From IMG/VR virus record IMGVR_UViG_3300028275_000480, positions 1-64,000 of that record: 64,000 bases of DNA; one strand, written 5' to 3'. The position numbers and the translations under genes were made by a program. This document shows, piece by piece, positions 14,678 to 46,549 of this stretch (the stretch's first letter is position 1; the number at the start of each line of letters is the position of its first letter). The notes beneath the pieces were generated by a model. It was not told the origin of the DNA. It saw only the letters and a list, made by a program, of their open reading frames with translations, and did no database searches. This DNA is from a virus. Its lineage: Duplodnaviria; Heunggongvirae; Uroviricota; Caudoviricetes.

Positions 14678-14683
14678 AATTAA

Positions 14684-15480: not shown

Positions 15481-15487
15481 ATGCGAT

Positions 15488-16296: not shown

Positions 16297-16554
16297 TCAT
16301 TCTTCTGCATATAAATCCTCAATGTCCACGGTGTCTTCTACTATACACCAAGTTGCTTCTAAGATAAGACCCGCTTTATTTTTGCACCTTTCCACTTCCC
16401 AGTTATCCCATATCTCTACACGCTCTACACGCTCAATAAAGCCCAGTCTATGATTACGTGCTCTTTGTGCTATACGAGCACCCGCAAGAGACCTGTAGTA
16501 CTTTAAGCGTCTTTGGGTGTCTTTATGCACCAGATACCAAACCTGTTGTTTCAT
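16297..16554 (-). CDS. hypothetical protein
   Basis: start MKQQVW with AAGGA RBS. Confidence 0.45.
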   Translation of the reverse strand: MKQQVWYLVHKDTQRRLKYYRSLAGARIAQRARNHRLGFIERVERVEIWDNWEVERCKNKAGLILEATWCIVEDTVDIEDLYAEE

Positions 16555-16606
16555 ACCTGTATCCTTATCTGCACACACACTCTATGTGGATCTTCTGTAA
16601 GGCCCT

Positions 16607-16957
16607 GTGGGCAAAGCTGTGAGCATGCCTCTAGGCCTAGAGTTAAAATTAACAGCAATTTCCTCATTTGATATTTATGGCGCTACCGCTGCCGCTTCGC
16701 GGCTTATAGAATTATGCTCGGCCATTTTGGATAAGTACAGGATGGCGATTCAGATCACAGATCATTGTTATAGATATCATCACTTTCGACATGGGTTAGA
16801 TCCTGAACAGATTTGGCGTGATGTACAAGCGTGGGGTGGCTTTCTCAGTATACAACCTGGGGGCGACATAGACTTTTTTGTGCCTGATCGTAATCGTGTG
16901 TTCTTTGAAATCAAATACCCAGAATTATCTAGAAGTCATAGTCGCAGCTGGGTTTAA
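16607..16957 (+). CDS. hypothetical protein
   Basis: 116-aa ORF; first plus-strand gene after the strand switch. Confidence 0.4.
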   Translation: MGKAVSMPLGLELKLTAISSFDIYGATAAASRLIELCSAILDKYRMAIQITDHCYRYHHFRHGLDPEQIWRDVQAWGGFLSIQPGGDIDFFVPDRNRVFFEIKYPELSRSHSRSWV

Positions 16958-16969
16958 TTAAATACTAGT

Positions 16970-17812
16970 ATGGCTCTTACCAAAAATCAACATCGTGTGC
17001 TCACAGACTCCTTGATACGCTCAGGAGTTACACCCACTAGGGCCAATGCTAGAGCCATTCGAGAAGTTGCGCTTAAATTTACCAGTAAGGAAATACGCAC
17101 AGCTAACCCGCCTAGCTCGGATCTGCTAGGACAGACCATTGTCAGCATCACCATAGACCGTGAAGAGTATAAGAATAGAATTGATTGGTCACGTGCTTGG
17201 TTTGATCATTATCAACAGAACATTCGCAAGGGCAGATCAGTTCTGGGCACTCAGTTTCCCCTTGAACTATTAACCACAGACAACATTGTCACAGCTGAAA
17301 ATCTTAGCCTAACCTGGGCTTTGACTACCTCAGGCTTGGTCAGCGATGAAACTGCTCAAACGCCTAGGGCACAGCTGATCACTACAGAAGTGGTACAAAC
17401 TTCGGCCGCAGCTCAGCAAATAGAAAGTCTTAGAGTAGACACAGCCACGGGCAATCTCATATATCGCTGGTCGGATGGGCGTGAACAGGTAGCTGGCTAT
17501 GTCGCAGGCCCTGCACCTGAGATCAGCATAGGCTCTGTTACAACTAGACCCTCGGGCTCGGGCAGCTCAGTGACCATTGAAGGCACTGGCCCTGACTATG
17601 TCTTAAACTTTGAGCTTGAAACAGGGCCCTATCAAGAGGGTGCTGTTTTAGAAACTCAAGAATACACAGACCCCCAATGGCTACACATAACTACCCTGGG
17701 TACCCTTAGCCTAACAGAAGCAGTAACAGAACCCCTTCAGGCCACTACCAAGGCCTATGTGGATAACCTGGCCCTTAGACAAACAGCATTCACAATCGTA
17801 TTTGGCAGCTAG
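16970..17812 (+). CDS. hypothetical protein (Thr/Ser-rich, possibly structural)
   Basis: 280-aa ORF. Confidence 0.55.
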   Translation: MALTKNQHRVLTDSLIRSGVTPTRANARAIREVALKFTSKEIRTANPPSSDLLGQTIVSITIDREEYKNRIDWSRAWFDHYQQNIRKGRSVLGTQFPLELLTTDNIVTAENLSLTWALTTSGLVSDETAQTPRAQLITTEVVQTSAAAQQIESLRVDTATGNLIYRWSDGREQVAGYVAGPAPEISIGSVTTRPSGSGSSVTIEGTGPDYVLNFELETGPYQEGAVLETQEYTDPQWLHITTLGTLSLTEAVTEPLQATTKAYVDNLALRQTAFTIVFGS

Positions 17813-17832
17813 GCCCCAGCAGTAAATACTGC

Positions 17833-18444
17833 ATGGAAATAGTCTACGACAAAAACTACATACGGGTCATTGACGCTGCCCTTGACCCAGAATTCTGCGA
17901 TGAAATGGTCAAGGCCTTTGAACTCTGCGCTCGATTCCATAAGGAACGTCCGGGCGAGTGGGCCAAATTAATTGAATTAGATCTACACTCTACACGCCAC
18001 CCTCAGGCTCGTAATCCCTGGGATCTTTATAAGAAAAGCAGCCACTGGGCCTATGATTGGACTGAGACCTGCGATCAACTCTCAGCTAGGGTCATACCCT
18101 TGGTCAGTGACTATAAGCGTGATTGGGACACTCTAAACATCTTGCCCTATGACTTTGCCCTAGAGGGTTTTAGAATCAAATGCTATAGACCCAATGGTCG
18201 TCATGAGTTTAAACTACACGCTGATAATACTACCCTAGAAACTTCATCTAGATTTTTGGCCTGTTTGTTTTATCTCAACGATTCGGACGCTGGCACAGAG
18301 TTTCCTTTGGAAAACATGACCGTGGCTGCTCGTCGAGGTCGGCTCTGTATATTCACACCCACTTGGCATTTTCCTCATGCAGGGCTTATGCCCCAAGACG
18401 GACAAACCAAATACATTCTTTCAACTTACTTGGTATTCAAATGA
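17833..18444 (+). CDS. 2OG-Fe(II) oxygenase-like protein (TIGR02466-like paralog 1)
   Basis: KLHADN...SRFLACLFYL...H matches the H-x-H...SGxxY pattern. Confidence 0.55.
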   Translation: MEIVYDKNYIRVIDAALDPEFCDEMVKAFELCARFHKERPGEWAKLIELDLHSTRHPQARNPWDLYKKSSHWAYDWTETCDQLSARVIPLVSDYKRDWDTLNILPYDFALEGFRIKCYRPNGRHEFKLHADNTTLETSSRFLACLFYLNDSDAGTEFPLENMTVAARRGRLCIFTPTWHFPHAGLMPQDGQTKYILSTYLVFK

Positions 18445-19022
18445 AATCACAAAAACTACACTTATTTTATGCTCCTGTTTATGTACGTGAACTAGAGGGC
18501 GAAGAACTAGATCGAGTACAGGCACAGATCAAACAAGCATTAGACCAGTTGGAAGTCAAGGATAATCCCTGGGACGACGAAGTTAGTTCCAGCTTTAAAT
18601 TTGACGGCTCCAACGATATTGTGGACCTGGGCATGAACCACCTAACTGACTCTATATTTGAAAGTCTACGTGATTGGTGTAATTTTATCAAATATCCAGT
18701 TAGACCCTTTAGGCTCACAGACAGCTGGGTCAATATCTACGAGCCCAAAAACTTCATGTACGATCATGTACATCCGGAACGAGCTATTTCGGGCTGCTAC
18801 TATTATCAAGCAGATGGTGATGAGGGTAATTTAACCTTTAAAAGCCCTAACCCTGTAGATCATCTTAGACTATGGCCCGCAGATCTACTGCCACAACGTC
18901 AGAGCCATCATATACAGCCAAAAACAGGAACTTTGATCATGTTTCCTAGTTGGTTAACACACAAGGTAGGAGTTAACCGCACAGATAAACAGCGAGTCAG
19001 CATAGCATTTAATCTAGCCTAA
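18441..19022 (+). CDS. 2OG-Fe(II) oxygenase-like protein (TIGR02466-like paralog 2)
   Basis: HVHPERAISGCYYY...H motif; ATGA overlap with the upstream gene. Confidence 0.6.
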   Translation: MKSQKLHLFYAPVYVRELEGEELDRVQAQIKQALDQLEVKDNPWDDEVSSSFKFDGSNDIVDLGMNHLTDSIFESLRDWCNFIKYPVRPFRLTDSWVNIYEPKNFMYDHVHPERAISGCYYYQADGDEGNLTFKSPNPVDHLRLWPADLLPQRQSHHIQPKTGTLIMFPSWLTHKVGVNRTDKQRVSIAFNLA

Positions 19023-21531: not shown

Positions 21532-22171
21532 TCTTTCCTTGTACAATTAACACTTCCAAAGGGAATGAAAATGATTGTACAGATAGGCCTGTCAGCCCAT
21601 TTAGTTTTAATTGTTCTTCTAATTCGGTTTTGGTAAAAGCGGCTCTTAAAGAGTTTCTAAAATCTTCTTTAAATTTCTCGCCATCTAAAAAAGAAAATGT
21701 GTTTATGTAATACTCAATTGTATCTTCGCTGTCGGGTCGAGCTAGATCCAATACAAAAACATTCGATCCTGGTTTCGAAATGTTTTTTACAACGTTCCAA
21801 AAATCATTTGGGTTGTGAAAATGATGTAGAGTATTTGTAGATATAATCCAGTCATACTTTTTATCAATATCGCTAAACATTTTGTTGTATAATGTAATTT
21901 GTCTATTATCTGCAACAACAAATTCTCTAGCAAGATCTATCATAGCAGGGGAACCGTCATAACAATCAATATGAATGTTTCTAAATTCTCTAGATAATGC
22001 AAAAGAATAGTCTGCAGGACCACATCCTAAATCAGCAACATCACCTTGTACTTTGTGAGTGGCTATCTGACTAATGAAAAACTCTCTTAACCCTTCTCTA
22101 TGTGCAGAATAAAATTCCATACACTGATCAGGATCGAGCATTAATATATCCGGTTCAATAGTTCTTATCAT
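21521..22171 (-). CDS. class I SAM-dependent methyltransferase
   Basis: motif I VADLGCGPADYS. Confidence 0.7.
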   Translation of the reverse strand: MIRTIEPDILMLDPDQCMEFYSAHREGLREFFISQIATHKVQGDVADLGCGPADYSFALSREFRNIHIDCYDGSPAMIDLAREFVVADNRQITLYNKMFSDIDKKYDWIISTNTLHHFHNPNDFWNVVKNISKPGSNVFVLDLARPDSEDTIEYYINTFSFLDGEKFKEDFRNSLRAAFTKTELEEQLKLNGLTGLSVQSFSFPLEVLIVQGKIDN

Positions 22172-22791
22172 ACAGCGAATATGTTTGTACCAATAATAAT
22201 TCTATCTTCTGTAGATTGATTGGGCATAGTCTTGTGTCTTAGATATGAAGGAAAGATAACAAGGTCTCCTTCTTCAACAGGCACTTCGTAATCAAACAAC
22301 TGGTGATATGAACTTCTATTGTTAAATGAATATGGTTGATGTTTAAGTATTACTTCATTTGGGTGTTCAAAAACAAGATTGCCCGAATCTTTATTTTTCT
22401 TAAGATAAAAACTTGATGTTAACGGAACTGGACTATGATTGTGCGTATCGATAAATGACCCTGGAGCATATCGATTGGCCCACATCTCAACAATAGCAGG
22501 TTTTCCTGAATAATTTAAATGTTGCCAATATGCATTAACATGTTCTGTTAAAAATTCTAATAACCCTTGTAGTTCGGGCATTGATTGTAAATTGCGTACA
22601 ACATTATAAGAGCATAATCCACCGTTCCTCATTGAACCTTGATTGTCTTTAATTGTTTCAGCAAAGACAGGCTCAAGAAGGGGGATAACATTGTTTTGTA
22701 ATTCAACAATGTTATCTTTATATTTTGTTCTATATATTGAAATAGCAAATATATCTTCAATCATTATCTGTTCGAGCCCTACTATAATCAA
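22168..22791 (-). CDS. 2OG-Fe(II) oxygenase-like protein (TIGR02466-like paralog 3)
   Basis: IDTHNHSPVPLTSSFYL...H motif; ATGA coupling to the methyltransferase. Confidence 0.55.
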   Translation of the reverse strand: MIIVGLEQIMIEDIFAISIYRTKYKDNIVELQNNVIPLLEPVFAETIKDNQGSMRNGGLCSYNVVRNLQSMPELQGLLEFLTEHVNAYWQHLNYSGKPAIVEMWANRYAPGSFIDTHNHSPVPLTSSFYLKKNKDSGNLVFEHPNEVILKHQPYSFNNRSSYHQLFDYEVPVEEGDLVIFPSYLRHKTMPNQSTEDRIIIGTNIFAV

Positions 22792-28657: not shown

Positions 28658-29248
28658 CTAAAATGTTCTATGGAATGTGTGAGGATTTGGGCTAATGTTT
28701 ATACTCATAACGATCCGATCATCGTTTGAGTTGTTTTTTTGAGTTTTATGTAGCATCCAACCTGGGAACATTAATACATCTCCCGTTTGGACTTCAACTT
28801 CTTTCCAAGGAAGCTCAACTCTAAGACTTCCGCTCCAAATATGAAACATTGGATCAAAAATTTCTAAGTTTCCACCGTTGGCAGGTTGTTCAACATATAA
28901 AACGCAGACCAACGGAACACTACCGTGAGTGTGTTCGTCAGTCCATCCGTTAAAAGGATGAAGGTTAACCCAACTAGAGCTTATTGATAAGTCACATTTT
29001 GGAAGTTGCCATTCAGCCCAAACTTTTTCTATCATTGGTCCCGCCCAAACAAGAAAATCGTTTGATTCTTCCCAGTAGTGAGGCGCATCGGGATCGGAGG
29101 AAGAACTTATCCCTCCGTCCCGTTCTACTCTGTTATTAAGTTGTGATCCAGTTTTGAGTTTATGAGAAGCTCGTTTAACCAACTCACTTAGGTCACCAGA
29201 ATAATGGCCTTTCCATACAACCGCTGGAGATAGACTGATCGGAGTCAT
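28658..29248 (-). CDS. 2OG-Fe(II) oxygenase-like protein (TIGR02466-like paralog 4)
   Basis: TDEHTHGSVPLVCVLYV...H motif. Confidence 0.55.
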   Translation of the reverse strand: MTPISLSPAVVWKGHYSGDLSELVKRASHKLKTGSQLNNRVERDGGISSSSDPDAPHYWEESNDFLVWAGPMIEKVWAEWQLPKCDLSISSSWVNLHPFNGWTDEHTHGSVPLVCVLYVEQPANGGNLEIFDPMFHIWSGSLRVELPWKEVEVQTGDVLMFPGWMLHKTQKNNSNDDRIVMSINISPNPHTFHRTF

Positions 29249-29859: not shown

Positions 29860-30795
29860 ATGAGCAAATTAATGATCACTGGAGCAAATGGGTTTCTTGG
29901 ACGCAATGCTACCCCATTCTTAAAACAAATGTTTGACGAAACGGTATTGATTGATAAACCTCCGTTCTTATGGGACCAAAGTGTTCGAGAAGGGTGGTCG
30001 CACAATAATCAAATACATTATTGCGATATAACAGAAGATATTCCAGTTTTAAAAGAACATCTTAAAGAAGTTGATGTTGTTGTTCATATGGCCAATCGAT
30101 CTAGGATTGATCCTAGTTGGAATGAGTACGCTGAATACTATAATGTAAACATAACAGCAACACATAAATTTTTTAGTTTATGCCAAACTATGGGTGTAAG
30201 GAAATTTGTTTATATAAGTTCTAGCTCAGTGTATGGAAACAACGGTACAATCAAACAACGAGAAGATAGCCAATTGATGCCAACCAATCCTTATGCTGTG
30301 AGCAAGATGTCTGCAGAATGGGCACTTCACGTGCAGAGTCTTGTTGGGGATACAGAATTAATAATAATAAGACCTTTTACCATGTACGGAGACTTTATGG
30401 ACTTTGGCAAAAACGCATTAGTGATTCCAAAGTTTATTTCTGCCTGGGAAACCAATCAACCGTTGTTGTTACACGGCGGTGGTGATCAACGCAGAGACTT
30501 TGTTCATGTTAGTGATGTTATCAAAGGTCTTATGATTGTTCTAGAGTACGGTGAACACGGAGACGTATTCAATTTAGGATCAGGCCAATCTGTAAGTATC
30601 AAACAATTGGCAGACATTATTAGTCATAGACAAATAGTTGTTCCGCCACGTGTTGGAGCAGTAGCAAATACAGAAGCAGATATTACAAGATTAGCCGAAC
30701 TGGGTTATAAACCAAATGTAAAGGTATTACGATGGTTGACGGACCTAATGGAAGAGCTTAAACTAAAAAATATTTCTAACATTAAGGAAGCATAA
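29860..30795 (+). CDS. NAD-dependent sugar-nucleotide epimerase/dehydratase
   Basis: Rossmann motif ITGANGFLG; YxxxK; 311 aa. Confidence 0.8.
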   Translation: MSKLMITGANGFLGRNATPFLKQMFDETVLIDKPPFLWDQSVREGWSHNNQIHYCDITEDIPVLKEHLKEVDVVVHMANRSRIDPSWNEYAEYYNVNITATHKFFSLCQTMGVRKFVYISSSSVYGNNGTIKQREDSQLMPTNPYAVSKMSAEWALHVQSLVGDTELIIIRPFTMYGDFMDFGKNALVIPKFISAWETNQPLLLHGGGDQRRDFVHVSDVIKGLMIVLEYGEHGDVFNLGSGQSVSIKQLADIISHRQIVVPPRVGAVANTEADITRLAELGYKPNVKVLRWLTDLMEELKLKNISNIKEA

Positions 30796-31383
30796 ATGAG
30801 TTTAGTACCAATGGTAGTTGAGTCTACATCAAAAGGCGAACGTGCATACGATATCTATAGCAGATTACTTAAAGAGCGTATTGTCATGTTAACAGGTGAA
30901 GTTGAAGACCACATGGCAAATATTGTAGTTGCACAACTATTATTTTTAGAAAGCGAAAATCCAGATAAAGAAATTAGTCTGTTTATTAATAGCCCAGGTG
31001 GTGTTGTTACAGCAGGCATGAGCATTTATGACACAATGCAGTTTATTAAATGCCCTGTGGCTACCTACGTTATGGGACAGGCTTGTTCAATGGGAAGTTT
31101 GTTAGCACAAGCAGGAGCAGAAGGTAAACGTTATATGTTGCCAAACGCTCGTCACATGATTCATCAACCCAGCGGCGGCGCCCGTGGTCAAGCTACAGAT
31201 ATTCAAATTCAAGCAGAAGAGATTTTAAAAATGAAAAAGAATCTTACTGAGATTTATGTTAAGCATAATTCAAAAGGTAAGACCTACGAAGAGTTTGCTC
31301 GCGACATGGAACGTGATAAGTTTATGTCAGCGCAAGAAGCTCTTGAATATGGACTCGTTGACAAAATCATCGAGAAACGATAA
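30796..31383 (+). CDS. clpP: ATP-dependent Clp protease proteolytic subunit
   Basis: full-length similarity, catalytic Ser in GQACSMGS and His in HQP. Confidence 0.85.
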
Positions 31384-31784
31384 TGACAAGACAAGAAGGT
31401 AAAGTAGATAAAGGATGGGGTTGCGAAATTATTTGGGCAACCAACGACAAGTACTGCGGTAAGATTATGGTCTTTGAAAAAGCAGGTGCTAAGTTTAGTA
31501 TGCACTTTCATAAAGAAAAAGACGAAACATGGTTTGTAAACGCAGGAAAATTTAAATTGGTTTGGTGCGACACAAAAACAGCAACCTATCACGAAAAATT
31601 CTTAAATGAAGGTGATACTTGGCATAACCCTCCTATGATGCCTCATCAACTTATTGCTCTTGTACCAAACTCAATGATATTTGAAGTTAGTACAGCAGAT
31701 AGTGTAGAGGATAACTATCGAATCATTCCCGGAGACAGCCAAAGTGCAACAACAGAACAACCAGCCACAGAACAACCAGCCTAA
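31383..31784 (+). CDS. cupin-domain protein (possible sugar isomerase/epimerase)
   Basis: conserved His/Glu cupin motifs; C-terminal TEQPA repeat. Confidence 0.5.
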   Translation: MTRQEGKVDKGWGCEIIWATNDKYCGKIMVFEKAGAKFSMHFHKEKDETWFVNAGKFKLVWCDTKTATYHEKFLNEGDTWHNPPMMPHQLIALVPNSMIFEVSTADSVEDNYRIIPGDSQSATTEQPATEQPA

Positions 31785-32367
31785 GATTACCTGGACTGGT
31801 GGCGAGTTTAGAACAAAGTGTGTAATAGGCTTAGATCGTGACGGAGTTATTAATCGCGATCTAGGTACCTATTGTTATCGTGTTGAAGATTTTGATCCAA
31901 TTCCTGGCAGCGTTGATGCAGTTGCTGAACTTAGACGTAAAGGTTATAAGATTGTAATCATTACAGATCAAGGGGGAATTGAAAAGGGTATCTATACACA
32001 AGAACAAGTAGATACATTGCACACACATATGCTAGATTTGTTTGGCAAGGCAGGATGTTCTAGTATCGATGCAATATATTATTCTGCTAGCTCACGTAAA
32101 GATGATCCGTTTGCAAAACCAAATACTGGAATGTTTAAGAGATGTGAAAAAGAAATTCCAGATATTAAATTTAATCAAGGTTATTATGTAGGCGATAAGA
32201 TTAAAGATCTTAAAGCAGCAGTTAAGATGGGTTCAAAACCTGTGTTAGTTAGAACAGGTTATGGCCTTGAAACAGAAAAAGAATTAAACAAATTCACTTA
32301 CAGAGAATTAAAGCGTCGAACTATTATATTTGACGATCTTGCAAGTTTTGTTAACTCGTTACCATGA
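31744..32367 (+). CDS. gmhB: HAD-IIIA phosphatase, D,D-heptose 1,7-bisphosphate phosphatase-like
   Basis: GLDRDGVIN DxD motif; GTG start is uncertain and overlaps the cupin gene's 3' end. Confidence 0.65.
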   Translation: MQQQNNQPQNNQPKITWTGGEFRTKCVIGLDRDGVINRDLGTYCYRVEDFDPIPGSVDAVAELRRKGYKIVIITDQGGIEKGIYTQEQVDTLHTHMLDLFGKAGCSSIDAIYYSASSRKDDPFAKPNTGMFKRCEKEIPDIKFNQGYYVGDKIKDLKAAVKMGSKPVLVRTGYGLETEKELNKFTYRELKRRTIIFDDLASFVNSLP

Positions 32368-32762
32368 AACAAATAATAGTCAATGGAACTTTTGATATAT
32401 TGCATAGAGGACACATAGAATTATTAAACTATGCAAAGTCTGTTGGCGATCGTTTGCTAGTTTGTATTGACAGCGATGCTCGTGTAAATTTTCTTAAAGG
32501 GCCGGGCCGCCCTATTAACGATCAATGGGATCGTATGCTTATGTTACAGAATTTAAAATCTGTAGATGATGTTAAGATTTTCAATACTGAAGAAGAACTT
32601 ATCTCAATAATTAAAAGCATTAGGCCTGTAACTATGGTAAAAGGCAGTGACTACCGCAATAGATCGATTGTGGGAGAAGAATACTGCAATGAAATATTAT
32701 TTTATGAACGAACAAATCACTCAACTTCCAAAACAATACAGGATATTATTGATAGGGGATAA
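32364..32762 (+). CDS. cytidylyltransferase-fold nucleotidyltransferase (RfaE/HldE domain II-like)
   Basis: GTFDILHRGH HxGH motif. Confidence 0.7.
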   Translation: MKQIIVNGTFDILHRGHIELLNYAKSVGDRLLVCIDSDARVNFLKGPGRPINDQWDRMLMLQNLKSVDDVKIFNTEEELISIIKSIRPVTMVKGSDYRNRSIVGEEYCNEILFYERTNHSTSKTIQDIIDRG

Positions 32763-33465
32763 AGGTACAGACATTTACACATACGGAAGTGTGAATAGGA
32801 TTAGTCCTGAAGCTCCAATACCTGTGTTCAATCCACATGGACATACTTACAAAGCGGGTATGGCCGACAACGTTAGAGAAAATTTAGAAGCACTTGGGTG
32901 CAATGTAAATTTCCTCTACGGGGAAACTAGCGAAAAAGAAAGACTTATCGATCGACGCAGTAAACAACAGATAGTTCGAATTGATAGAGATAAGAAAAGT
33001 GATCCTATTAGGTTTGATACTCCTATTCCTAATTTTTATGATGCAATAGTAATCAGCGATTATAACAAAGGAACCATTACCTACGAACTTGTTGAAGAAA
33101 TTAGAAAAGAATACAAAGGACCTATTTTCATTGACACTAAAAAAACAGACCTTGTTAGGTTCGAAGGCTGTTATGTAAAAATAAATGAATTAGAAAAAAG
33201 CAAGGCTATTACATTACCAAACAGCAAATGGTTAATTGTTACTCTTGGCGAAGATGGGGTTCAATATTTGGATAATAAACTAACCCCTAAAAAAGTTCCA
33301 TTGGTTGATGTAACAGGAGCAGGCGATACTTTCTTAGCTGCATTGACCTACAAATTTTTAGAAACAGAAAATATGATGCAAGCATTAGAGTTTGCCAACA
33401 ATGCATCATCAATTACGGTACAGCACGTTGGATGTTATGCACCAACATTAGAGGAAATACTATGA
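32689..33465 (+). CDS. PfkB-family sugar kinase (RfaE/HldE domain I-like heptose kinase)
   Basis: ILLIGDKGTD...SPEAPIPV; GAGDTF motif; start uncertain (32647 to 32704). Confidence 0.7.
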   Translation: MKYYFMNEQITQLPKQYRILLIGDKGTDIYTYGSVNRISPEAPIPVFNPHGHTYKAGMADNVRENLEALGCNVNFLYGETSEKERLIDRRSKQQIVRIDRDKKSDPIRFDTPIPNFYDAIVISDYNKGTITYELVEEIRKEYKGPIFIDTKKTDLVRFEGCYVKINELEKSKAITLPNSKWLIVTLGEDGVQYLDNKLTPKKVPLVDVTGAGDTFLAALTYKFLETENMMQALEFANNASSITVQHVGCYAPTLEEIL

Positions 33466-34331
33466 TTATACTCACAGGAGCAGCAGGCTTTATTGGAAGT
33501 TATATTTTAGGTTATCTTAATAAACAAGGAATCGAAGATGTTTACCTCTTTGATGATATGCCTTATGGAGATCAATATAAAAATTTAATTGGCAAAAAAT
33601 ATAAAGGACTATACTCTACTAAAGAAATTATAGACAATCTATCTGCGTTCGATTGTGTTATCCATTGCGGAGCAAATGCAAGTACACTAGAAAGAGATTG
33701 GTCTAGCATCTACGAATCCAATATTGTTAGTACAAGAAGATGGCACGACCTTTGTAAGCATTACGGAAAAAAGTTTATATTCATGTCAAGCGCAGCAGTA
33801 TACGGCAACGGAAACGGTCCTGTTAACCACTATGCTTTTAGTAAACTTACCTGCGAACAAGAAATAACTAATGGTGTAATACTTCGATTATTCAACGTCT
33901 ACGGACCAAATGAATATCACAAAGGTCGTATGGCTAGTACGCCCTTTCATTGGTACCGTCAATTAGAAAACAATTTAATTTTAAAAATATTCAACAACTC
34001 AGAAAATTATCTAAGAGATTTTATATATGTCGAAGATGTGGCTAAAACCGTACATCATTTTATTAACAATTATAAAGAAGGTCTCTACGACCTTGGTACT
34101 GGTAATGCTGTAAGTTTTGATCGAGTTGCAGATCTTTGCTTACAAGAGATTGGATATGGCACAAAAATATCTATTGACATGCCAAATGATCTTAAAGAAC
34201 AATATCAAGAATACACCTGTGCATCAGTCCAGTTTTTAGAGGATGCTGGTGTTGATGTTAAAGGATTCTTTAATATAGATCAAGGTATTAAAGAATATTT
34301 TAATTACTTAAAGACTAATCAAATTTATTAA
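33462..34331 (+). CDS. hldD: ADP-L-glycero-D-manno-heptose-6-epimerase-like NAD-dependent epimerase
   Basis: [13 protein letters not shown] and YAFSK motifs; ATGA overlap with the kinase. Confidence 0.7.
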
Positions 34332-35517
34332 ACACCGCAGTAAGAGCAATGACTAAATCTTCAATCATTCCGTCGTCGTGATATGGAGTGGGTGCAAATC
34401 GTAATCTTTCAGTACCTACATCAACCGTAGGATAGTTAATTGGTTGAACATAGATGTTGTGATCATTTAACAGCATATCGCTCATTGCTTTACACTTCTT
34501 AGCATCTCCAACAAGCACAGGAATAATATGAGTGGTGGAACATTCCATAACAGGAATTCCTGCTTTCTTTAATCTATGTCTTAATTTACGAGCACGTTCT
34601 TGATGTTTCTCTCGAACTTCGTTATGCTCTTTTAAGTATTTGATTGCAGCCAACGCACCGGCACAGGTAACAGGGCTCATAGACGTAGTAAAAATGAACC
34701 CTGCAGCCACTGATCGGATAGCATCAATTACATCTGCATCGGCAGCAATATATCCACCTTGGACACCATACGCTTTACCAAGCGTTCCGTTAACTATGTC
34801 AACTCGGTCCTGGAACCCTAACTCTTCTAATTTACCAGCGCCGCGCTCACCGTATAGCCCTACCGCATGTACTTCGTCAATGTAAGTGATAGCATTGTAT
34901 TTGTCTGCTAGATTACAAATTCCTCTTATGTCTCCAACATCACCATCCATAGAATATACACTTTCAAAAACAATACAAGGAGTATGGCCAGCAAGTGTAG
35001 CAGCAACTAATTTGCTTTCTAAATCTTCTAGGTTATTGTGTTCAAATATTTGTTTAGGAGCTCGACTATGACTCATTCCTATAATTAAACTATTGTGATT
35101 TTTACTATCGCTGATAAAATGAATATTAGGCACAATCTTGCTTAGAGCAATAAGAGTCCATTCGTTGGCCACATATGCAGAGCTGAATAATAAACTGCTC
35201 TGTTTATTATGCAGAGTGGCAAGCTCGTGTTCTAAGGCTTTATGATAGTGACTAGACCCGCCAATATTGCGAGTGCCTCCTGAACCAGATCCTGTGTGAT
35301 CTAGAGCGGTGTGCATAGCATCTAGCACAACTTTATGCTGGCCCATGCCCAAATAATCGTTTGAACACCAGTTTACTATGTTCTTAATGTTATAAGGCCC
35401 GTACCAAATAGCTGTAGGAAATTTTCCAGCTTCTCTAACAATATCATTAAAAACACGATATTTTCCTGATGCTTTAAGATCCTGCAATAGTTTTTTAAAA
35501 GGTTCTTTGTTTATCAT
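34315..35517 (-). CDS. 5-aminolevulinate synthase-like class-II aminotransferase (ALAS/AONS family)
   Basis: [11 protein letters not shown] and [10 protein letters not shown] motifs typical of ALAS; 400 aa; 17-nt convergent overlap with hldD. Confidence 0.75.
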
Positions 35518-37999: not shown

Positions 38000-40900
38000 A
38001 TGACTATTCAAAAGATTAAATCTGGGCGTATACCTGGCCAAGACGTAGAATTTTACGTTGGTGCTCACGGACAACTATTTTACGACGAAGATACGGGTAT
38101 TTTACGTATTTCCGATGGAGTAACACCAGGGGGAACCGTTGTCAGCGGAGGAACAGGCGGGGGAACTTATACATTACCCACAGCAACAACTACCGTAAAA
38201 GGTGGTGTTAAAATTGACGGCACCACTATTAACATTGCTAATCAAGTTATCAGTGTGGGTACCGTTCCATATGCTAGTATTTCAAATGCACCCACAGCAG
38301 TCTCAGCATTTACTAACGATAGCGGATACATTACTTCAAGCGCCTTATCTAGTTATGCTACACAAACTTATGTAACTACTCGTGGATACATTACATCGGC
38401 AGGCATTCCTAGCGTAGTTAGTTCCTTTACTAACGATAGCGGATATGTAACTTCTAGTAGCTTTGATCTAGATACCATTGACTTTGATACTAACAATAAA
38501 CTGCATGCCACAGGAGTATTACCAGGTGATGCTGAAGGTTTCACTGCTATATTTGCAGGCCGCGCCGCAGGTGTAGCTGCACTACCTAACACCGTTATCC
38601 AAAGTCAAGCGCAGGTTAACGACTACGCACAGAACAACTTTCAAAATACTAACGATGGCAATCACGCAAGTACAGAATGGGTAGCAACAAGTCCAAACGG
38701 TAGCGACACAGACTACTATATTGATTTAGGTATTAACGGAGCAAGTTGGGACGGCACAGCAGAGAATAGTTTATATGATAATGTAGGACAGCGTGATGGA
38801 TGGTTGTATGTGCAAGGAGGTAATGCTGGCGGTGGTAACTTAGTACTTGGCACAAGTATTGCCAATACCTATACTAAGATTATTGCAGGTGATGCATCAG
38901 CAGGCAATAAGGAAGTTGTTCGCTTTAGTGAAACAGAAGTTAAACTATCTAAACAACTAACATTCAGTGACAACACAACACAGACTACAGCTTGGACTGG
39001 GTCTGTTAGTTGGAGCGATGTTACCAGCAAGCCTACAATATTAACAACTTTAAATAGTTTAGATGATGTGACTACCGTGGGAGCCACAGACGGTCAAGTC
39101 TTAAAATATAATGCCAGCCTTAGCATATGGCAACCAGCAGCTGACCTAGTAGGCAGTGGTGGTAGTGGTATTGGACTCACTGACTTATCAGCATCGAATG
39201 CTTCAGCCAGCGGTGGAGGAAGTTTAAGTTACAACAATACTTCGGGGGTGTTTACATTTACACCGCCTAACCTAACATCTTATGTAACTAATAGCTCGCT
39301 GTCGTCTACGCTATTGACCTATGCTACACAGACTTATGTTACTAGCCAAGGATATATTACTAGCTCGGGTAATGCCGCAACAGCAACTAAATTAGGAACT
39401 GCTCGTGCTATCAACGGAATAAATTTTGATGGTTCTGCTGCTATTACTATCACCGCAGTAAATCCTAATGCACTAACTATTGGCACAGGACTCAGCGGAA
39501 CAAGTTATGATGGTAGCACAGCAGTTACCGTAGCAGTTGATAATACTATAGCACGTAGAGCAGATACTACCTATGTTGGTACAACCAGTATTGCCCTAAA
39601 CAGATCAAGTGCTAGCCAAACACTAACAGGTGTAAGTATTGACGGCAATGCCGATACGGTGACCAACGGTGTTTATACCACAGGCACATACGCAAATCCA
39701 GCGTGGATAACAAGTCTAGCCTACAGCAAGTTAACTGGGACCCCTACAATCTTTAGTGGTAGTTATACAGACTTAACTAATAAGCCAACTATACCTACAA
39801 ATGTAAGCCAATTAGCCAACGACAGCGGATACATTACCGCCGCAGCAATACCGGCACAATTTACATTTAATGTAGCAGCCGATGATAGTTCATTAAAAAC
39901 TATTAGTAGTCAAGAAACAATTAAGTTTATAGGAGCTAATAATATTACAACATCCAGTGATGCTGAAGGCAATATCACCATCACTGGCCCAACACTAACA
40001 GGTTATGCAACTAAGACAGGTGCTGAAACTTTAACTAGTAAAAACATTAGTGGCTCAAGTAATACTATTACCAACATTGCCAACTCGAGTTTGTCTAATA
40101 GCTCTGTTACCATTGGTACTACATCAATATCATTAGGCAGTTCGTCAACTACACTTGGCGGAATGGCATGGATTACATTTGCTGGTAGCACTAGCGGCAC
40201 AACACAATTAAGGCCTAGTGCAATAGCTGGTACAACAACCGTTACAATGCCAGGAACAACTGGCACACTGATTACTACAGGCGATACCGGCACGGTTACA
40301 AATGCTATGTTAGCAGGCAGTATTGCCACAAGCAAGATTACTGGGTTAGCTACGAGTGCTACCACAGATACAACAAATGCTTCTAATATTACCAGCGGAA
40401 CATTACCTAATGCACGACTAAGTTCCGTTCCAAATAGCGCATTAGCAAACAGCAGTATCTCTGTCAATGGCACAAGCATTTCTTTAGGTGGAAGCGGCAC
40501 TATTACCGTTAATAGTATTTCAGCAAGTGGTTTTACTGGCGTATTAGGATTTGATGCTTCCGGCAGTTTAATACTAAGCAATACAAATAAGTTTAGAAGT
40601 CCGTCTGGATTGATCATTGAAACCGGAACATCCCCATTAAAAGATTGGACATTTGGAACTACTGGTAGTTTAACATTTCCAGATAATACCACACAGAGCA
40701 CCGCTTATACCGGCAATGCCGATACCGTAACCAATGGTGTTTATACCACCGACACCGGCACGGTCACAAACACAATGCTGGCAGGATCTATTGCCAATTC
40801 TAAGTTGGCAAATAGTTCAGTAACGATTAATGGCACAAGTATCGCACTAGGTGCAAGTGCTACTATTACAGCGGCCGCGGGCACACTAACCGGCACAACA

Positions 40901-42154
40901 TTAAATTCAACCGTAGTAACTTCAAGTTTAACCAGTGTTGGCACACTAACAAGTTTAACAACTAGTGGAACTATTACTAGTAGTAAAACGGGAACCGCAA
41001 CACACGGAACAGGTGCACAACTTTATATTAACGGTTCTACTTATAGTAGAATAGACTTTAACAATGTCTATGGGGCTCCTACCGTAACTGATAGATCTAC
41101 AGGAACCAGAATATTATTCAATCCAGATATAGCAGTGAATAAAATGGATTGTGCTATCGGTATGTCAACTGATACCTTATGGTCCTCTGTTCAAGGCCCT
41201 AACTTCAACTTTGGTTGGTATGCTGGCGACGGATTAGGCTTTGCTGGTTCCAACGCCCCAGTTACACTTCTTACCTTATCGGGTGCTGGTGTCTTAACGA
41301 TTCCAGGAACAACAAGTGTAACTAATAACTCTGCTACTAATAAGACTCTCAATATTGGCACACACGGACAACTTTTTGACGACGGCAACCTTCATATTCA
41401 TACCAGCAGTGGAACATTATGGATCAATAGTTTAGATAGTAGTGATATTAGTATTGGAACTCAATATAACAGCGGATCTGGATCAAGTGTAAACATCGGT
41501 AAGAATCTAGTGGCCAACAGCGGTAGTGTAACAGCTAATGCTACCACAGCGTTCATTGCTGGAGATAATGCTGTCAGTGGCGTTGCACTACAAATGCCTA
41601 ACGAAGGCGCTCTTCGTAACTTGAAGAATGGTAGTACCAATATGTACTTTGACGTTAGCATTGGTGGATCAACTCAAGGATCATTCCAGTTCCGTTCGAG
41701 CAGTTCGTATACCAATGTGCTGACAATGAGCAGCACGGGTGTTACATTTAACACTGACGCAACCTTTACATCGAGAACACCGTCAGTATCAAGAACGGCA
41801 TACAACGCAGCCATAGATACTGAGATTACCTTGGATAATATGCGTTTCCGCATCAGCAATCAAGGGGGTATATTCCCACAGGTTATTGGCAACGGTTCGT
41901 CAAGAAATCTTGCTTGGACTGGTGTGGGTGCTATCAATGGTGCAGCCGTTGCTCAAGCAGGTAGCACTGGCACAATCGTATCTACTTCTGCCTGGACTAC
42001 ATTGTATAATCTACACGGTATGGATGCCGCTGGTGATACCGTTACCGTTACACTACAGGATAAGGCGGCAGGTCGTATCTATCGCATTACATTCATGCGT
42101 AGTGACAACGGTAGCACAACAGGCTACAACATCATTGGCGAGAGAATATTATAA
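38000..42154 (+). CDS. tail fibre protein (large, repeat-containing)
   Basis: 1384 aa, Thr/Ser/Gly-rich with repeated TNDSGYITS and NADTVTNGVYTT segments. Confidence 0.8.
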   Translation: MTIQKIKSGRIPGQDVEFYVGAHGQLFYDEDTGILRISDGVTPGGTVVSGGTGGGTYTLPTATTTVKGGVKIDGTTINIANQVISVGTVPYASISNAPTAVSAFTNDSGYITSSALSSYATQTYVTTRGYITSAGIPSVVSSFTNDSGYVTSSSFDLDTIDFDTNNKLHATGVLPGDAEGFTAIFAGRAAGVAALPNTVIQSQAQVNDYAQNNFQNTNDGNHASTEWVATSPNGSDTDYYIDLGINGASWDGTAENSLYDNVGQRDGWLYVQGGNAGGGNLVLGTSIANTYTKIIAGDASAGNKEVVRFSETEVKLSKQLTFSDNTTQTTAWTGSVSWSDVTSKPTILTTLNSLDDVTTVGATDGQVLKYNASLSIWQPAADLVGSGGSGIGLTDLSASNASASGGGSLSYNNTSGVFTFTPPNLTSYVTNSSLSSTLLTYATQTYVTSQGYITSSGNAATATKLGTARAINGINFDGSAAITITAVNPNALTIGTGLSGTSYDGSTAVTVAVDNTIARRADTTYVGTTSIALNRSSASQTLTGVSIDGNADTVTNGVYTTGTYANPAWITSLAYSKLTGTPTIFSGSYTDLTNKPTIPTNVSQLANDSGYITAAAIPAQFTFNVAADDSSLKTISSQETIKFIGANNITTSSDAEGNITITGPTLTGYATKTGAETLTSKNISGSSNTITNIANSSLSNSSVTIGTTSISLGSSSTTLGGMAWITFAGSTSGTTQLRPSAIAGTTTVTMPGTTGTLITTGDTGTVTNAMLAGSIATSKITGLATSATTDTTNASNITSGTLPNARLSSVPNSALANSSISVNGTSISLGGSGTITVNSISASGFTGVLGFDASGSLILSNTNKFRSPSGLIIETGTSPLKDWTFGTTGSLTFPDNTTQSTAYTGNADTVTNGVYTTDTGTVTNTMLAGSIANSKLANSSVTINGTSIALGASATITAAAGTLTGTTLNSTVVTSSLTSVGTLTSLTTSGTITSSKTGTATHGTGAQLYINGSTYSRIDFNNVYGAPTVTDRSTGTRILFNPDIAVNKMDCAIGMSTDTLWSSVQGPNFNFGWYAGDGLGFAGSNAPVTLLTLSGAGVLTIPGTTSVTNNSATNKTLNIGTHGQLFDDGNLHIHTSSGTLWINSLDSSDISIGTQYNSGSGSSVNIGKNLVANSGSVTANATTAFIAGDNAVSGVALQMPNEGALRNLKNGSTNMYFDVSIGGSTQGSFQFRSSSSYTNVLTMSSTGVTFNTDATFTSRTPSVSRTAYNAAIDTEITLDNMRFRISNQGGIFPQVIGNGSSRNLAWTGVGAINGAAVAQAGSTGTIVSTSAWTTLYNLHGMDAAGDTVTVTLQDKAAGRIYRITFMRSDNGSTTGYNIIGERIL

Positions 42155-43799: not shown

Positions 43800-44669
43800 A
43801 TGAATCCAAAATCTTATCAAATATTTGCTCAATTACTAGAAGGCCACGTAGTCGAAGCAAGCACATCTATGAGTCTTATTGCTGGTCAAACTGGCGGTAA
43901 AGAAGTGGTCCAAGCCCTGCATAAGGATTTAAAACTAGCACACGACATTGGTTATCGTCCAGTGGATAAAATATCCTGGAGCGATTTAAAAAATGCCTAC
44001 GAGGGTGCATGGGTTATTATTCAAGGTGCTAAAGGCACTGGTGCTATTAAAGCCGGAAGAAACGGCACTTATGATGCAGTGGCCAGCAGCGGAGGCCCGA
44101 TCCGAACAACATCAGATGGACGCGGCGGAAATATTCTAGATTTTCTTAAAGGTGAGATTGGAAAACTACAAAAATTTTATGTAGGTAAAAATACTCGAGC
44201 AGTTAGTGATAAACAGAAAAAACGTGCAGATGCTAAAAAAGGAACTTCTAACGAAGTAACTCAAGAAACTTTAATTAAAAAATTTAGACCATTGTGGATT
44301 CGTGCTATTACAGCAGCCATGGCCGATGTTAAAGGACATGTTTCTAATATGATTAAAAATGATGCGTTTGAAAAAGCACAGCGAAAATTAAATCATGTTA
44401 GTAAATTACAAAGTGGGTTAGAAGCATTAGAAGCCGGTGAAGATGTTACTCCGGAATTTATCTCTAATGCTATCAATGTTTCTGTACTAATGGCATCTAG
44501 TCATTTTTATCCAGAACAAACAGGCGCTATAACAAAAAGTTATGGTAGTAGATTTAGTGCAGAAAGAAGTGAAGGCACACAACAATTATTAAAAGACATT
44601 GCCGGTGGTGATCAAAAGAAACTAGGCGCTGTTCTATCTTTCTTTAAAAGGGCATTGATATCAGGATGA
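43800..44669 (+). CDS. hypothetical protein
   Basis: 289-aa ORF. Confidence 0.55.
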   Translation: MNPKSYQIFAQLLEGHVVEASTSMSLIAGQTGGKEVVQALHKDLKLAHDIGYRPVDKISWSDLKNAYEGAWVIIQGAKGTGAIKAGRNGTYDAVASSGGPIRTTSDGRGGNILDFLKGEIGKLQKFYVGKNTRAVSDKQKKRADAKKGTSNEVTQETLIKKFRPLWIRAITAAMADVKGHVSNMIKNDAFEKAQRKLNHVSKLQSGLEALEAGEDVTPEFISNAINVSVLMASSHFYPEQTGAITKSYGSRFSAERSEGTQQLLKDIAGGDQKKLGAVLSFFKRALISG

Positions 44670-45793
44670 AACTAGAACAAGTAATATCAGAAGCCAACAT
44701 AGCGGCTAAAATTAAAGATCCTAAAACAATCAAAATGATTGGGATTGCAATGCGTCACGACAGCACATTGCCAAAAGACAAAGTGGCAAAATTAGGCCCT
44801 AAGCCGACCGATGAGCAAATTCTAAACTTGTGGAGTGAATTATTAGATGCTTCTTTAAGATCAACTGACTATGGCGATCTTTCACAAGATGGTAAATTTG
44901 ATGATTGGTTAACTCGTTTATATACTAATGGTGTAGTTGACTACGAAGATATTAACGGCGAAGGTGGCGATGCTCTAGGTGCTTGGAAAGCTCTAAGTAT
45001 TCGTGGCAAGTTAAAAGAAAAAGATCAAGATTTTAATCGTTTTAAAAATTTACGCCAGATTCAGGCAATTGTACAAACTAGAGAATACCGCGACGAACTA
45101 CGTCGTATTAAAGACTCTGAAACGATTGAAAGACATAAACGTGAAAAGAAAGAAACAACGTTGATTGATAATGAACGTTTCTTAATTACATTACCTTACA
45201 ACTATGGTGCTTGTTATACATTTAATAACTCTGCAGGTTTCAATGCTTCATTCTGTACAGGGTCAAGCAGCGGTCTAACATGGTTTAATCGATATGCCAA
45301 GGACGGTCCTATTATCAGTATCCTTGACAAAGAAAACATTGATGATGTGAACGGCAAATGGCAGATGCATGGTCCTACAGGACAAATGAATAACGGCAAT
45401 CAAAGTTTATCTTATAGAAGTGGTGATGCTAAGTTTGCTGAGTTGTTTCCTGGACTAATGAAAGATATTATTGCTGCTATGAAATCTAAAGCAGAAGAAA
45501 TCAAACAAAACTCTACTGAACTTATGCAAGGCGGTTACGATATTAATCAAGCCATTGCTGATATAAAAGATCGTTTGCCTCATTCATATGCTTCGGAAAA
45601 ACCTAAGGAAAAAGATGAGCCAGAACAGACCGATGAAGGTCCAGGAACATTCTTAGTTACATTGTTATCAAACAATCGACAAGCAAGAGTTGAGGGTGAA
45701 AATGAAGAAGATGTAATTAATAAAGTAATTACAAGACATCCAAATTTAACCAGAGACGACATAAGTGTTGAAAGGATTCGCGAAGGCGAGTAA
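44666..45793 (+). CDS. hypothetical protein
   Basis: 375-aa ORF; ATGA overlap with the upstream gene. Confidence 0.55.
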   Translation: MKLEQVISEANIAAKIKDPKTIKMIGIAMRHDSTLPKDKVAKLGPKPTDEQILNLWSELLDASLRSTDYGDLSQDGKFDDWLTRLYTNGVVDYEDINGEGGDALGAWKALSIRGKLKEKDQDFNRFKNLRQIQAIVQTREYRDELRRIKDSETIERHKREKKETTLIDNERFLITLPYNYGACYTFNNSAGFNASFCTGSSSGLTWFNRYAKDGPIISILDKENIDDVNGKWQMHGPTGQMNNGNQSLSYRSGDAKFAELFPGLMKDIIAAMKSKAEEIKQNSTELMQGGYDINQAIADIKDRLPHSYASEKPKEKDEPEQTDEGPGTFLVTLLSNNRQARVEGENEEDVINKVITRHPNLTRDDISVERIREGE

Positions 45794-45886: not shown

Positions 45887-46549
45887 GTGAGCTTTTATAA
45901 AGACCGTGGCATGAAGATAGCGTTATTTGTGCATCAACCTAAATGTTCAATAGAGTCTGGGAACGGTATTCTCGAAGCACTTCAACCATATCATAAATTT
46001 AAATTATTCACTAAATGGGATCTTGACGATAACTTTTTTGATGATGTTGATATGATTGCTATTCCAGGAGGTTTTGGAGATAGCGAAAGTTGGCATTATC
46101 TAATGCGTAATCATACGACCCGTATAAAAAAGTTTATTCAAGACGGTGGAAAATATCTAGGAATATGTATGGGAGCATATTGGGCAGGCAAACACTATTT
46201 TGATATTTTAGATAATGTTGACGCTGTTCAATATATCACTCGTCCAAACACCGACACCCGTAGACCACATGCAAAAGCAATTAATATTAATTGGTTAGGA
46301 CAACAAGAACGCATGTATTTCTATGATGGATGCGCATTGATCGGTGATAATAAAAAATTTCAAACAATAGCAACATACGCCAATGGAGATCCTATGGCTA
46401 TTATTCAAAATAATATAGGATTAATAGGTTGCCACCCTGAAAGTCAACTTAATTGGTATACAGAACATTATAGTTGGATGAAACCGCATTATCATCAAGG
46501 AAAACACTATAAATTGCTGTTAGATTTTGTTGATCAGTTAGATACCTAA
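45887..46549 (+). CDS. class-I glutamine amidotransferase-like domain protein
   Basis: GICMG nucleophile-elbow motif. Confidence 0.5.
   Translation: MSFYKDRGMKIALFVHQPKCSIESGNGILEALQPYHKFKLFTKWDLDDNFFDDVDMIAIPGGFGDSESWHYLMRNHTTRIKKFIQDGGKYLGICMGAYWAGKHYFDILDNVDAVQYITRPNTDTRRPHAKAININWLGQQERMYFYDGCALIGDNKKFQTIATYANGDPMAIIQNNIGLIGCHPESQLNWYTEHYSWMKPHYHQGKHYKLLLDFVDQLDT

Follow-up and report, generated by a model that had tools for sequence, protein, structure and literature searches.

A phage operon predicted to make nucleotide-activated heptose, with a cupin as candidate replacement for GmhA

How might a phage that carries enzymes for the later steps of activated-heptose biosynthesis, and no GmhA beside them, begin the pathway? 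The question is raised by seven genes at positions 29860 to 34331 of a 64,000-nucleotide stretch of DNA (the window), which comprises positions 1 to 64,000 of IMG/VR record IMGVR_UViG_3300028275_000480, a virus of the class Caudoviricetes. Heptose nucleotides are precursors of the lipopolysaccharide (LPS) core and innate immune agonists. The isomerase GmhA is considered a drug target and, as far as we know, is regarded as the universal entry enzyme of heptose biosynthesis. Based on profile searches, structural comparisons, and gene neighborhoods, we favor with moderate confidence the reading that these genes make a nucleotide-activated heptose, with a small cupin encoded among them performing the first step in place of GmhA.

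The seven open reading frames (ORFs) were verified in the ORF list of the window as follows.

29860..30795, plus strand: SDR1, a predicted accessory NAD-dependent sugar-nucleotide epimerase, 4-epimerase-like, at the head of the operon (Pfam Epimerase, 5.7e-47)
30796..31383, plus strand: ClpP, a cellular-type proteolytic subunit, the gene directly before the cupin (Pfam CLP_protease, 1.6e-83)
31383..31784, plus strand: single-domain metal-type cupin of ~120 amino acids plus a low-complexity tail (Pfam Cupin_1/2, about 1e-6)
31744..32367, plus strand: GmhB-like HAD-IIIA phosphatase, putatively for the heptose 1,7-bisphosphate 7-phosphatase step (Pfam HAD families, 1e-8 to 1e-10)
32364..32762, plus strand: HldC-like heptose-1-phosphate nucleotidyltransferase, a stand-alone RfaE domain II (Pfam CTP_transf_like, 7e-15)
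32704..33465 (start in the ORF list, 32647), plus strand: HldA-like heptose-7-phosphate kinase of the PfkB family, a stand-alone, shortened RfaE domain I (Pfam PfkB, 3e-19)
33462..34331 (start in the ORF list, 33432), plus strand: HldD-like ADP-glycero-manno-heptose 6-epimerase (Pfam Epimerase, 2e-32)

We refined the kinase start to the ATG at 32704 (253 amino acids) and the HldD start to the ATG at 33462 (289 amino acids) because the lengths then fit those called in relatives (253 and 288 amino acids). Across the cassette, neighboring genes either adjoin directly or share 1 to 59 nt, a packing so tight that the seven genes form one unit, which we read as a single co-transcribed operon of the phage. 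Coordinates, strand, and Pfam and NCBIfam profile searches all agree with the row of seven genes and their domains as described earlier from the letters and translations alone (the sequence-only reading). A scan for sigma-70 promoters and terminators gave counts no higher than in shuffled sequences (28 versus 26.2 and 4 versus 4.0, respectively), and the T4-type late promoter TATAAATA had 2 matches versus 4.8 expected. In orthologous operons of divergent relatives, gene lengths were kept over saturated synonymous distances (dS), with nonsynonymous distances (dN) of 0.11 to 0.46, and dN/dS where computable was 0.05 to 0.21, indicating purifying selection. We therefore conclude that the genes are not pseudogenes.

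For each of the four enzymes, the best NCBIfam match and the best PDB match were to a heptose-pathway family (GmhB, HldC, HldA, and HldD), and the catalytic motifs were intact in all four, based on reading of the sequences and alignments to PDB chains. The phosphatase matched PRK08942 with 137.5 bits (E value, 3.4e-40; cutoff, 178), and its top four PDB matches (4pnh, 2gmw, 3l8e, and 3l8h) were all GmhB-type HAD proteins; D,D-heptose 1,7-bisphosphate phosphatase is the name given to the first three. HAD motifs I to IV are present, with DRDGVIN, T-(D/N)Q-GI, KP, and GDK aligning with the PDB relatives; the protein lacks cysteines where E. coli GmhB binds zinc. The transferase scored 114.8 bits on TIGR02199 (rfaE_dom_II; E value, 2.8e-33; cutoff, 181.5) and 52.9 bits on g3p_cytidyltrns. 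Its best PDB match was 5x9q (4.7e-19), an HldC, and the HxGH motif is present as HRGH. For the kinase, TIGR02198 (rfaE_dom_I) gave 141 bits (E value, 4.1e-41; cutoff, 345) and the ribokinase model gave 59 bits. The best PDB match of the kinase was 4e84, the D-beta-D-heptose 7-phosphate kinase HldA of Burkholderia, with which both the HldA-specific N-terminal motif GD..D.Y..G...RISPEAP.PV and the GAGD motif align; relative to RfaE domain I, the window kinase is ~60 amino acids shorter. The epimerase scored 233 bits on TIGR02197 (heptose_epim; E value, 4.3e-69; cutoff, 274.6) and aligned end to end with E. coli AGME (1eq2; 3.8e-42), with YxxSK and HKGxMAS conserved. Because all four scores lie below the curated equivalog cutoffs of NCBIfam, the four proteins are divergent relatives rather than certified equivalogs. 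The sequence-only reading had set its heptose assignment against ribokinase and glycerol-3-phosphate cytidylyltransferase, and here the heptose models won (141 versus 59 and 115 versus 53 bits).

Promiscuous heptose nucleotidyltransferases of the STTR5 type carry Arg at position 5 of (F/L)XXGRSTT (PMC11573728). The window transferase reads ...ERTNHSTS, with His at this position, where relatives carry Tyr or His. An STTR5-type identity is ruled out by the His instead of Arg before S-T-S, and under the published criterion CTP/UTP promiscuity is not predicted.

The sequence-only reading had also treated the split of HldE into two genes in "reversed" order as unusual, a view that did not hold up. 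Stand-alone kinase and transferase chains occur in the PDB, and the transferase-then-kinase order is not peculiar to the window because the cyanomyophages P-SSM2 and S-CAM1 have it too, there also with overlapping genes and with GmhA absent. Among relatives the gene order varies freely, and some carry a fused HldE that scores 290 to 321 bits on the HldE model.

The absence of GmhA from the window, as previously proposed, was confirmed. With E. coli GmhA as the query, phmmer --max and tblastn searches of the six-frame ORFs of the window for a SIS/GmhA protein gave a best E value of 0.14, and neither the related loci nor a few kilobases of this genome flanking the window gave a match at an E value of ≤1. 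In the phage collection, E. coli GmhA matched only 13 records, which comprised Caulobacter phage Cr30, enteric/faecal contigs, and a 636-kb uncultured phage; none of the 13 was a cyanophage record.

The missing reaction, from sedoheptulose 7-phosphate (S7P) to D-glycero-D-manno-heptose 7-phosphate, is the seven-carbon analogue of the conversion of fructose 6-phosphate to mannose 6-phosphate, which is done by cupin phosphomannose isomerases (PMIs). Like the known cupin isomerases (PF01050 ManC/CpsB and 7zvy; PF07385 7nzp and 2y0o), the window cupin is a single barrel with an HxH..E..H motif; it would differ from them in its predicted substrate, a C7 sugar phosphate. Its motif is G-x5-HxH-x4-E-x6-G ... 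PH, and the metal ligands H41, H43, E48, and H88 are present and kept in all 29 sequences of the tree alignment. In a 53-member cupin alignment, H43 is at least 90% conserved, and a few members lack H41 or E48. This large family comprises 4575 clusters at the 90% identity level and 2479 representatives at the 50% level, and its consensus, KGWGxE...YCGK...SMHFHxxKxETWxV...PHQL...EVST..D.YR..GDSQ, contains classical metal-binding motifs.

Profile comparison with hhalign aligned the cupin family with the C-terminal PMI-type domain of E. coli CpsB/ManC (probability, 80.7%; E value, 1.3e-5) over 91 columns, which take in PWG/GWG, HxH..E.W.V, a second His, and the EV strand. Comparison with E. coli RfbC gave a probability of 0.4%, and we rejected an RmlC-like 3,5-epimerase identity. 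PF01050 (PMI C-terminal) was matched by 23 of the 53 cupin members and PF07385 (D-lyxose isomerase) by 25; the window cupin itself falls below the Pfam thresholds for both families, and a fusion protein, P0141, scores over the PF01050 gathering threshold. The AlphaFold (AF2) model of the cupin has a pLDDT of 96, and its Foldseek neighbors include D-lyxose/mannose isomerases, such as the D-lyxose isomerase 7nzp, and the 110-amino-acid PMI 7zvy of T. kodakarensis. The top Foldseek matches are a mixture of dioxygenases, decarboxylases, and isomerases, and generic metallocupins likewise come first when the PDB is searched by sequence or profile. Given these mixed metallocupin neighbors, the fold alone cannot assign a function to the cupin.

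Gene associations point more directly to the heptose pathway. A tblastn search with the kinase matched 37 phage-collection records, almost all of them T4-like cyanophages, and the cupin was present in all 30 of the phage records among the kinase matches listed. The cupin is fused to an HldC-like transferase in one protein (P0183) and to HAD phosphatases in five (P0141, P0149, P0182, P0201, and P0248). A 357-kb contig (L031) of a metagenome-assembled genome (MAG) carries an HldE-HldD-cupin-GmhB cluster. Scanning 185,579 species genomes with a degenerate cupin motif yielded 39 matches, 25 of which were true family members. Heptose genes occurred within 8 kb around the cupin in 12 of these 25 loci, and GmhA occurred in none; several of the cupin-bearing MAG contigs evidently represent binned phage DNA. 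A neighbor-joining tree divided the cupin family into two subclades, of which the one containing the window cupin is heptose linked in 12 of 15 cases; the other contains the cyanophage proteins plus members from quite different settings. The cupin also had the lowest dN of the operon (0.125) in the comparison with one divergent relative (L050), and its protein identity was 81% in both ortholog comparisons.

We propose the following route, in which the four homologous enzymes would act as in the canonical HldA/GmhB/HldC/HldD pathway, with a reaction order presumed to be identical. The cupin (31383-31784) would isomerize S7P to D-glycero-D-manno-heptose 7-phosphate, replacing the SIS-fold GmhA, possibly by a metal-dependent aldose-ketose mechanism as in cupin phosphomannose and lyxose isomerases. 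The HldA-like kinase would then add the anomeric phosphate, the GmhB-like HAD phosphatase would remove the 7-phosphate, the HldC-like transferase would form the NDP-D,D-heptose, and the HldD-like SDR would epimerize C6''. The last four steps are predicted from family-level homology. The assignment of the first step to the cupin draws on the pathway gap, the gene fusions, the gene neighborhoods, and the similarity in fold and profile. The operon differs from the canonical route in having a PMI-like cupin and no SIS-fold GmhA, in being phage borne, and in scores that fall below the equivalog cutoffs. A substitution of GmhA by the cupin had been a guess of the sequence-only reading. That guess has gained comparative support from fusions, neighborhoods, co-occurrence, and the PMI profile match, and the activity itself stands as a prediction from them; of all elements of the earlier interpretation, this guess has the most support and is the sole one that may be new. 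We put the chance that the window cupin is a replacement S7P isomerase at about one half. Equally balanced, in our judgment, is the broader proposal that the cupin founds an unrecognized family of GmhA-independent S7P isomerases, which would make the phage route from S7P to NDP-L,D-heptose self-contained. We found no link between cupins and S7P isomerization in the literature searched.

Cassettes of this type are already known, and the window holds a lineage-specific variant of a module that is annotated in cyanomyophages. Homologous modules occur in P-SSM2 (PSSM2_309-313), S-CAM1 (SXBG_00216-220), S-CAM3, S-SSM7, S-SM2, and SynMITS9220M01. The annotations of P-SSM2 and S-CAM1 list carbamoyltransferase, nucleotidyltransferase, kinase, "phosphoheptose isomerase," and "cysteine dioxygenase" in that order, followed by a nucleotide-sugar epimerase encoded on the other strand. 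Identities between the cyanophage modules and the window are 39 to 52% for the transferase (52% to S-CAM1 SXBG_00220), 41 to 43% over the full length of the kinase, 40% for the cupin, and 30 to 32% for the epimerase, and blastp comparisons with P-SSM2 and S-CAM1 proteins gave E values of 1e-21 to 1e-62. Both the cyanophage modules and the window cassette lie beside tail-fibre/virion structural genes. They differ in the phosphatase, which is a small EcbF-type HAD protein (TIGR01689) in the cyanophages and a canonical GmhB-type HAD-IIIA protein in the window. The cyanophage module adds a carbamoyltransferase and a marginal GT9-like gene that have no homologs in the window, and we found no similarity in the window to PSSM2_307, PSSM2_308, or PSSM2_311. 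Conversely, ClpP, SDR1, and a convergent 5-aminolevulinate synthase (ALAS) gene are specific to the lineage of the window.

The label "phosphoheptose isomerase" in the cyanophages appears to be wrong. A DxDGT motif is present in the protein, and the family it matches best is TIGR01689, the HAD "capsule biosynthesis phosphatase" (E value, 1e-8); we therefore rejected the label in favor of a small HAD phosphatase. The cyanophage "cysteine dioxygenase" is a PMI-like cupin. These apparent misannotations lie at 8716-9060 (PSSM2_311) and 9041-9397 (PSSM2_312) of one cyanophage locus (L001) and at 6746-7069 and 7053-7406 of another (L002). Once the isomerase label is set aside, the complete cyanophage set is a kinase, a HAD phosphatase, a transferase, an epimerase, and a cupin, with no GmhA.

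Closer relatives of the window operon are common in metagenomes. Many metagenome contigs share the block (SDR1) ClpP-cupin-GmhB-nucleotidyltransferase-kinase-HldD, bounded by an HNH endonuclease gene and by ALAS. When 50,697 phage records were searched with the region by megablast, none matched, and a kinase-only pattern search in viral contigs gave 28 pattern matches, none of which was confirmed. Heptose-related LPS genes are explicitly listed in a cyanophage genome announcement (PMC7378029), and rfaE is mentioned in a pelagimyophage survey (PMC7029224). According to commentaries (PMC11461863 and PMC11573728) on Tang et al. (Science, 2024), that study describes viral heptose nucleotidyltransferases, kinases, and isomerases and the production of ADP-heptose in vitro. 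The phosphatase is described in the commentary as absent from viruses, whereas the lineage of the window has a GmhB-like gene. In the window, the isomerase would be a cupin, and the transferase lacks the STTR5 arginine.

Several observations weigh against a cupin-initiated heptose pathway. All four heptose enzymes score under the NCBIfam cutoffs, so that their substrate specificity is not established. The window cupin has 16.7 bits on PF01050, for which the gathering threshold is 23.6, and in structure and sequence searches, quercetinases, oxalate decarboxylase, KdgF, and the C3-epimerase domain of CapF score level with the isomerases. Some family members also lie in other settings. In Acidobacteria (L008, L009, L020, and L037), the cupin is directly downstream of a gene judged by eye to be WecB-like (UDP-GlcNAc 2-epimerase), and in a Pelagibacter MAG (L014), it is part of another sugar-nucleotide cluster, between SDR and DegT-like genes. 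None of these loci has heptose genes in the surrounding 8 kb, and in the Marinoscillum lineage, the cupin has no nearby sugar genes. Given such varied neighborhoods, the family may lack a single function, and the pattern suggests that it has more than one sugar substrate. Furthermore, assembly contigs in ENA that are at least 99.9% identical to the window reach 202,669 nt in contig k141_374493 of ERZ27251587. The window therefore represents about one third of a ~200-kb genome, and GmhA could lie elsewhere or come from the host. Finally, Pfam or PHROGs scans of ~45 window ORFs found no heptosyltransferase or other glycosyltransferase.

Some of these points fit the main rival account, which we consider unlikely but worth weighing and in which the operon makes NDP-heptose with GmhA supplied by the host and the cupin modifies the sugar in another way, either by a CapF-like epimerization of the HldD keto-intermediate or as an unrelated oxygenase. 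CapF, which combines a cupin C3-epimerase with an SDR, is among the best Foldseek matches (TMq, 0.73 to 0.77); a weak WbuC-family match of the cupin points to O-antigen clusters; and family members adjoin WecB-like or other SDR genes where heptose genes are lacking. The cupin and epimerase genes are adjacent in P-SSM2, S-CAM1, and L031, and neither the host nor the remaining two thirds of the genome is in view. Yet in the fusion proteins observed, the partner of the cupin is the phosphatase or the transferase and not an SDR, the profile match goes to PMI-type cupins, and of all steps of the canonical route, only the isomerization lacks an enzyme. Moreover, GmhA is found in no cyanophage record, and marine Synechococcus, the host of cupin-bearing cyanophages, has heptose-free LPS (PMC4515613), so that such a host offers no obvious heptose pathway to rely on. 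That the kinase and transferase belong to a different pathway altogether, such as ribokinase with glycerol-3-phosphate cytidylyltransferase for teichoic-type polymers, or are decaying passengers, we regard as very improbable. Scores under the curated cutoffs, and matches to generic PfkB and cytidylyltransferase families, are compatible with such an origin. However, the heptose models score about twofold higher than the competing ones, the kinase has the N-terminal motif specific to HldA, GmhB-like and HldD-like genes are in the same operon, purifying selection has kept gene lengths over saturated dS, and the fused HldE proteins of relatives score 290 to 321 bits on the HldE model.

A further account, improbable in our view, concerns the fate of the sugar rather than the nature of the pathway: the cassette would supply an activated sugar for hypermodification of phage DNA, as NDP-arabinose does for cytosine arabinosylation in RB69, DLP3, and HY126 (PMC13326640). 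That route likewise uses a phage-borne isomerase, kinase, HAD phosphatase, and nucleotidyltransferase and starts from a ketose phosphate of the pentose phosphate pathway (PMC13326640). The four-step logic is thus the same, including a phosphatase that is GmhB-like in fold; in addition, the structural proteins of the window phage are T4-like, several 2-oxoglutarate (2OG)-Fe(II) oxygenases are encoded nearby, and scans of window ORFs brought up no envelope-type glycosyltransferase. Nevertheless, the two routes differ both in their sugar and in their enzyme families, which in the window are of the HldA/HldC/HldD type, with HldD acting on heptose C6''. The arabinose route also feeds a DNA glycosyltransferase, and neither such an enzyme nor a dCMP/dUMP hydroxylase or a thymidylate-synthase-like gene was seen in the window ORFs scanned.

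If the operon produces an activated heptose, where the sugar goes is a separate matter. The HldD-type epimerase argues that the sugar is a heptose. LPS remodelling, receptor masking, and virion glycosylation, all offered by the sequence-only reading, amount to pure speculation; a glycosyltransferase was lacking in the ORFs scanned. In the cyanophages, the GT9-like gene adjoining the S-CAM1 module is marginal (22.0 bits, at threshold), and its position in P-SSM2 is occupied by PSSM2_307. The LPS of marine Synechococcus is without heptose (PMC4515613), which makes a simple replenishment of the host LPS core unlikely, at least in cyanophages. With a published DNA arabinosylation route of the same logic (PMC13326640), glycosylation of DNA or virions is a live alternative to LPS remodelling.

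Potential targets and accessory genes lie near the cassette. A 1384-amino-acid fibre-like ORF (38000-42154, plus strand), repetitive and rich in Ser, Thr, Gly, and Asn, is 3.7 kb downstream, following the gene for a virion structural protein of phrog_1645, and could plausibly be glycosylated. At least five genes for PF13759-type 2OG-Fe(II) oxygenases surround the cassette (18363-19022, plus strand; 22168-22791, minus strand; 28658-29248, minus strand; and 10408-11663 in contigs L053/L054), and the same family is found inside or beside the heptose modules of P-SSM2 (PSSM2_314) and another contig (L046). A link between hydroxylation and glycosylation through these oxygenases is conceivable. A 375-amino-acid ORF (44666-45793, plus strand) was considered as a glycosyltransferase and rejected, as it has no domain and its sequence is not glycosyltransferase-like. 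It has no Pfam or PHROG match and has 1150 homologs with 77% mean column identity, and few proteins of this phage lineage are as highly conserved.

The best PDB matches of SDR1 are MoeE5 (6kv9; 2.7e-34), 6dnt, and 6zl6, which are UDP-glucuronate/UDP-hexose 4-epimerases, and its active-site strand ISSSSVYG and YxxxK align with the same motifs of MoeE5. In NDP-sugar 4,6-dehydratases such as RmlB and GMD, the catalytic Ser/Thr is immediately followed by an acid/base pair (Asp-Glu or Ser-Glu). SDR1 has SSSSVYG in place of this T-D/S-E motif, and we rejected a 4,6-dehydratase identity. The gene is present in three related contigs (L050 to L052), with only 51% amino acid identity to the L050 ortholog, and is absent from five (L004 to L007 and L048). 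Judged by its sequence, SDR1 is a variable accessory enzyme, 4-epimerase-like and not a dehydratase. The sequence-only reading had seen in the extra epimerase/dehydratase a sign of a deoxy-heptose, a suggestion left unsupported because the motif and the structural relatives are 4-epimerase-like and the presence of the gene varies.

ClpP scored 326.6 bits on PRK00277, exceeding the cutoff of 249 (E value, 6e-98), and 304 bits on TIGR00493, for which the cutoff is 308.6. The contexts of its Ser-His-Asp triad (GQACSMG, MIHQP, and ERDKF) are readable in the sequence, and the protein begins at the mature N terminus of E. coli ClpP. It is 77% identical to the ClpP proteins of Agrobacterium phage Atu_ph07 and Sinorhizobium phage Phosso, both Rhizobiaceae jumbo phages. 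In all relatives examined, ClpP directly precedes the cupin, and in the window the two genes overlap at stop and start. It is a conserved, co-transcribed passenger that nothing links mechanistically to sugar chemistry. The earlier observation that no ClpX or ClpA is encoded in the window stands, as the AAA+ proteins present are all of the MoxR type.

The genome around the operon is that of a phage. A virion structural protein is 53% identical to a protein of cyanophage S-RIM32, and other phage genes in the window encode ribonucleotide reductase, DNA ligase, and tail-spike-like proteins. The HNH endonuclease gene upstream of the cassette is on the minus strand, and ALAS lies convergently on its other side (34315-35517, minus strand; TIGR01821, 572 bits, above cutoff) in a position conserved in all related contigs. 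ALAS is typical of alphaproteobacteria, and together with a ClpP like those of Rhizobiaceae phages, it is a hint that the host, or the source of the genes, was alphaproteobacterial.

The first 18 kb of the window contain mostly small minus-strand ORFs, with MoxR-type AAA and DUF2201 genes, and have a G+C content of 45 to 49% (1-18000), compared with 35 to 43% for 18000-64000. The junction at 18 kb is not an assembly chimera, as it is unchanged in independent contigs of 100 to 200 kb. Auxiliary metabolic genes are dense at 46597-47871, 48456-49160, 45887-46549, 59937-60494, and 60469-61153. The set comprises isocitrate lyase (PF00463, 6e-106), a fatty acid desaturase, a GATase/BPL_N-like protein, an Fe/Mn superoxide dismutase, and NifU/IscA-like Fe-S assembly proteins, and the superoxide dismutase gene is missing from contig L053, which is otherwise 97 to 99% identical.

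Should the cupin prove not to be the isomerase, what remains is one more ordinary example of a type of phage auxiliary gene cluster that has been annotated before. If it is the isomerase, it would represent a new family of enzymes at the first committed step of heptose synthesis and a non-orthologous replacement of GmhA. This isomerase family would be widespread in aquatic phages, as indicated by its 2479 cluster representatives, and found in some bacteria as well, and a systematic misannotation in cyanophages would be corrected for both the "cysteine dioxygenase" cupin and the "phosphoheptose isomerase" HAD phosphatase. Abundant aquatic phages would then own a host-independent route from the pentose phosphate pathway to an activated heptose, which sharpens the question of the glycosylation target: even in hosts with heptose-free LPS, such as marine Synechococcus, the sugar would have to end on a phage-specified glycoconjugate.

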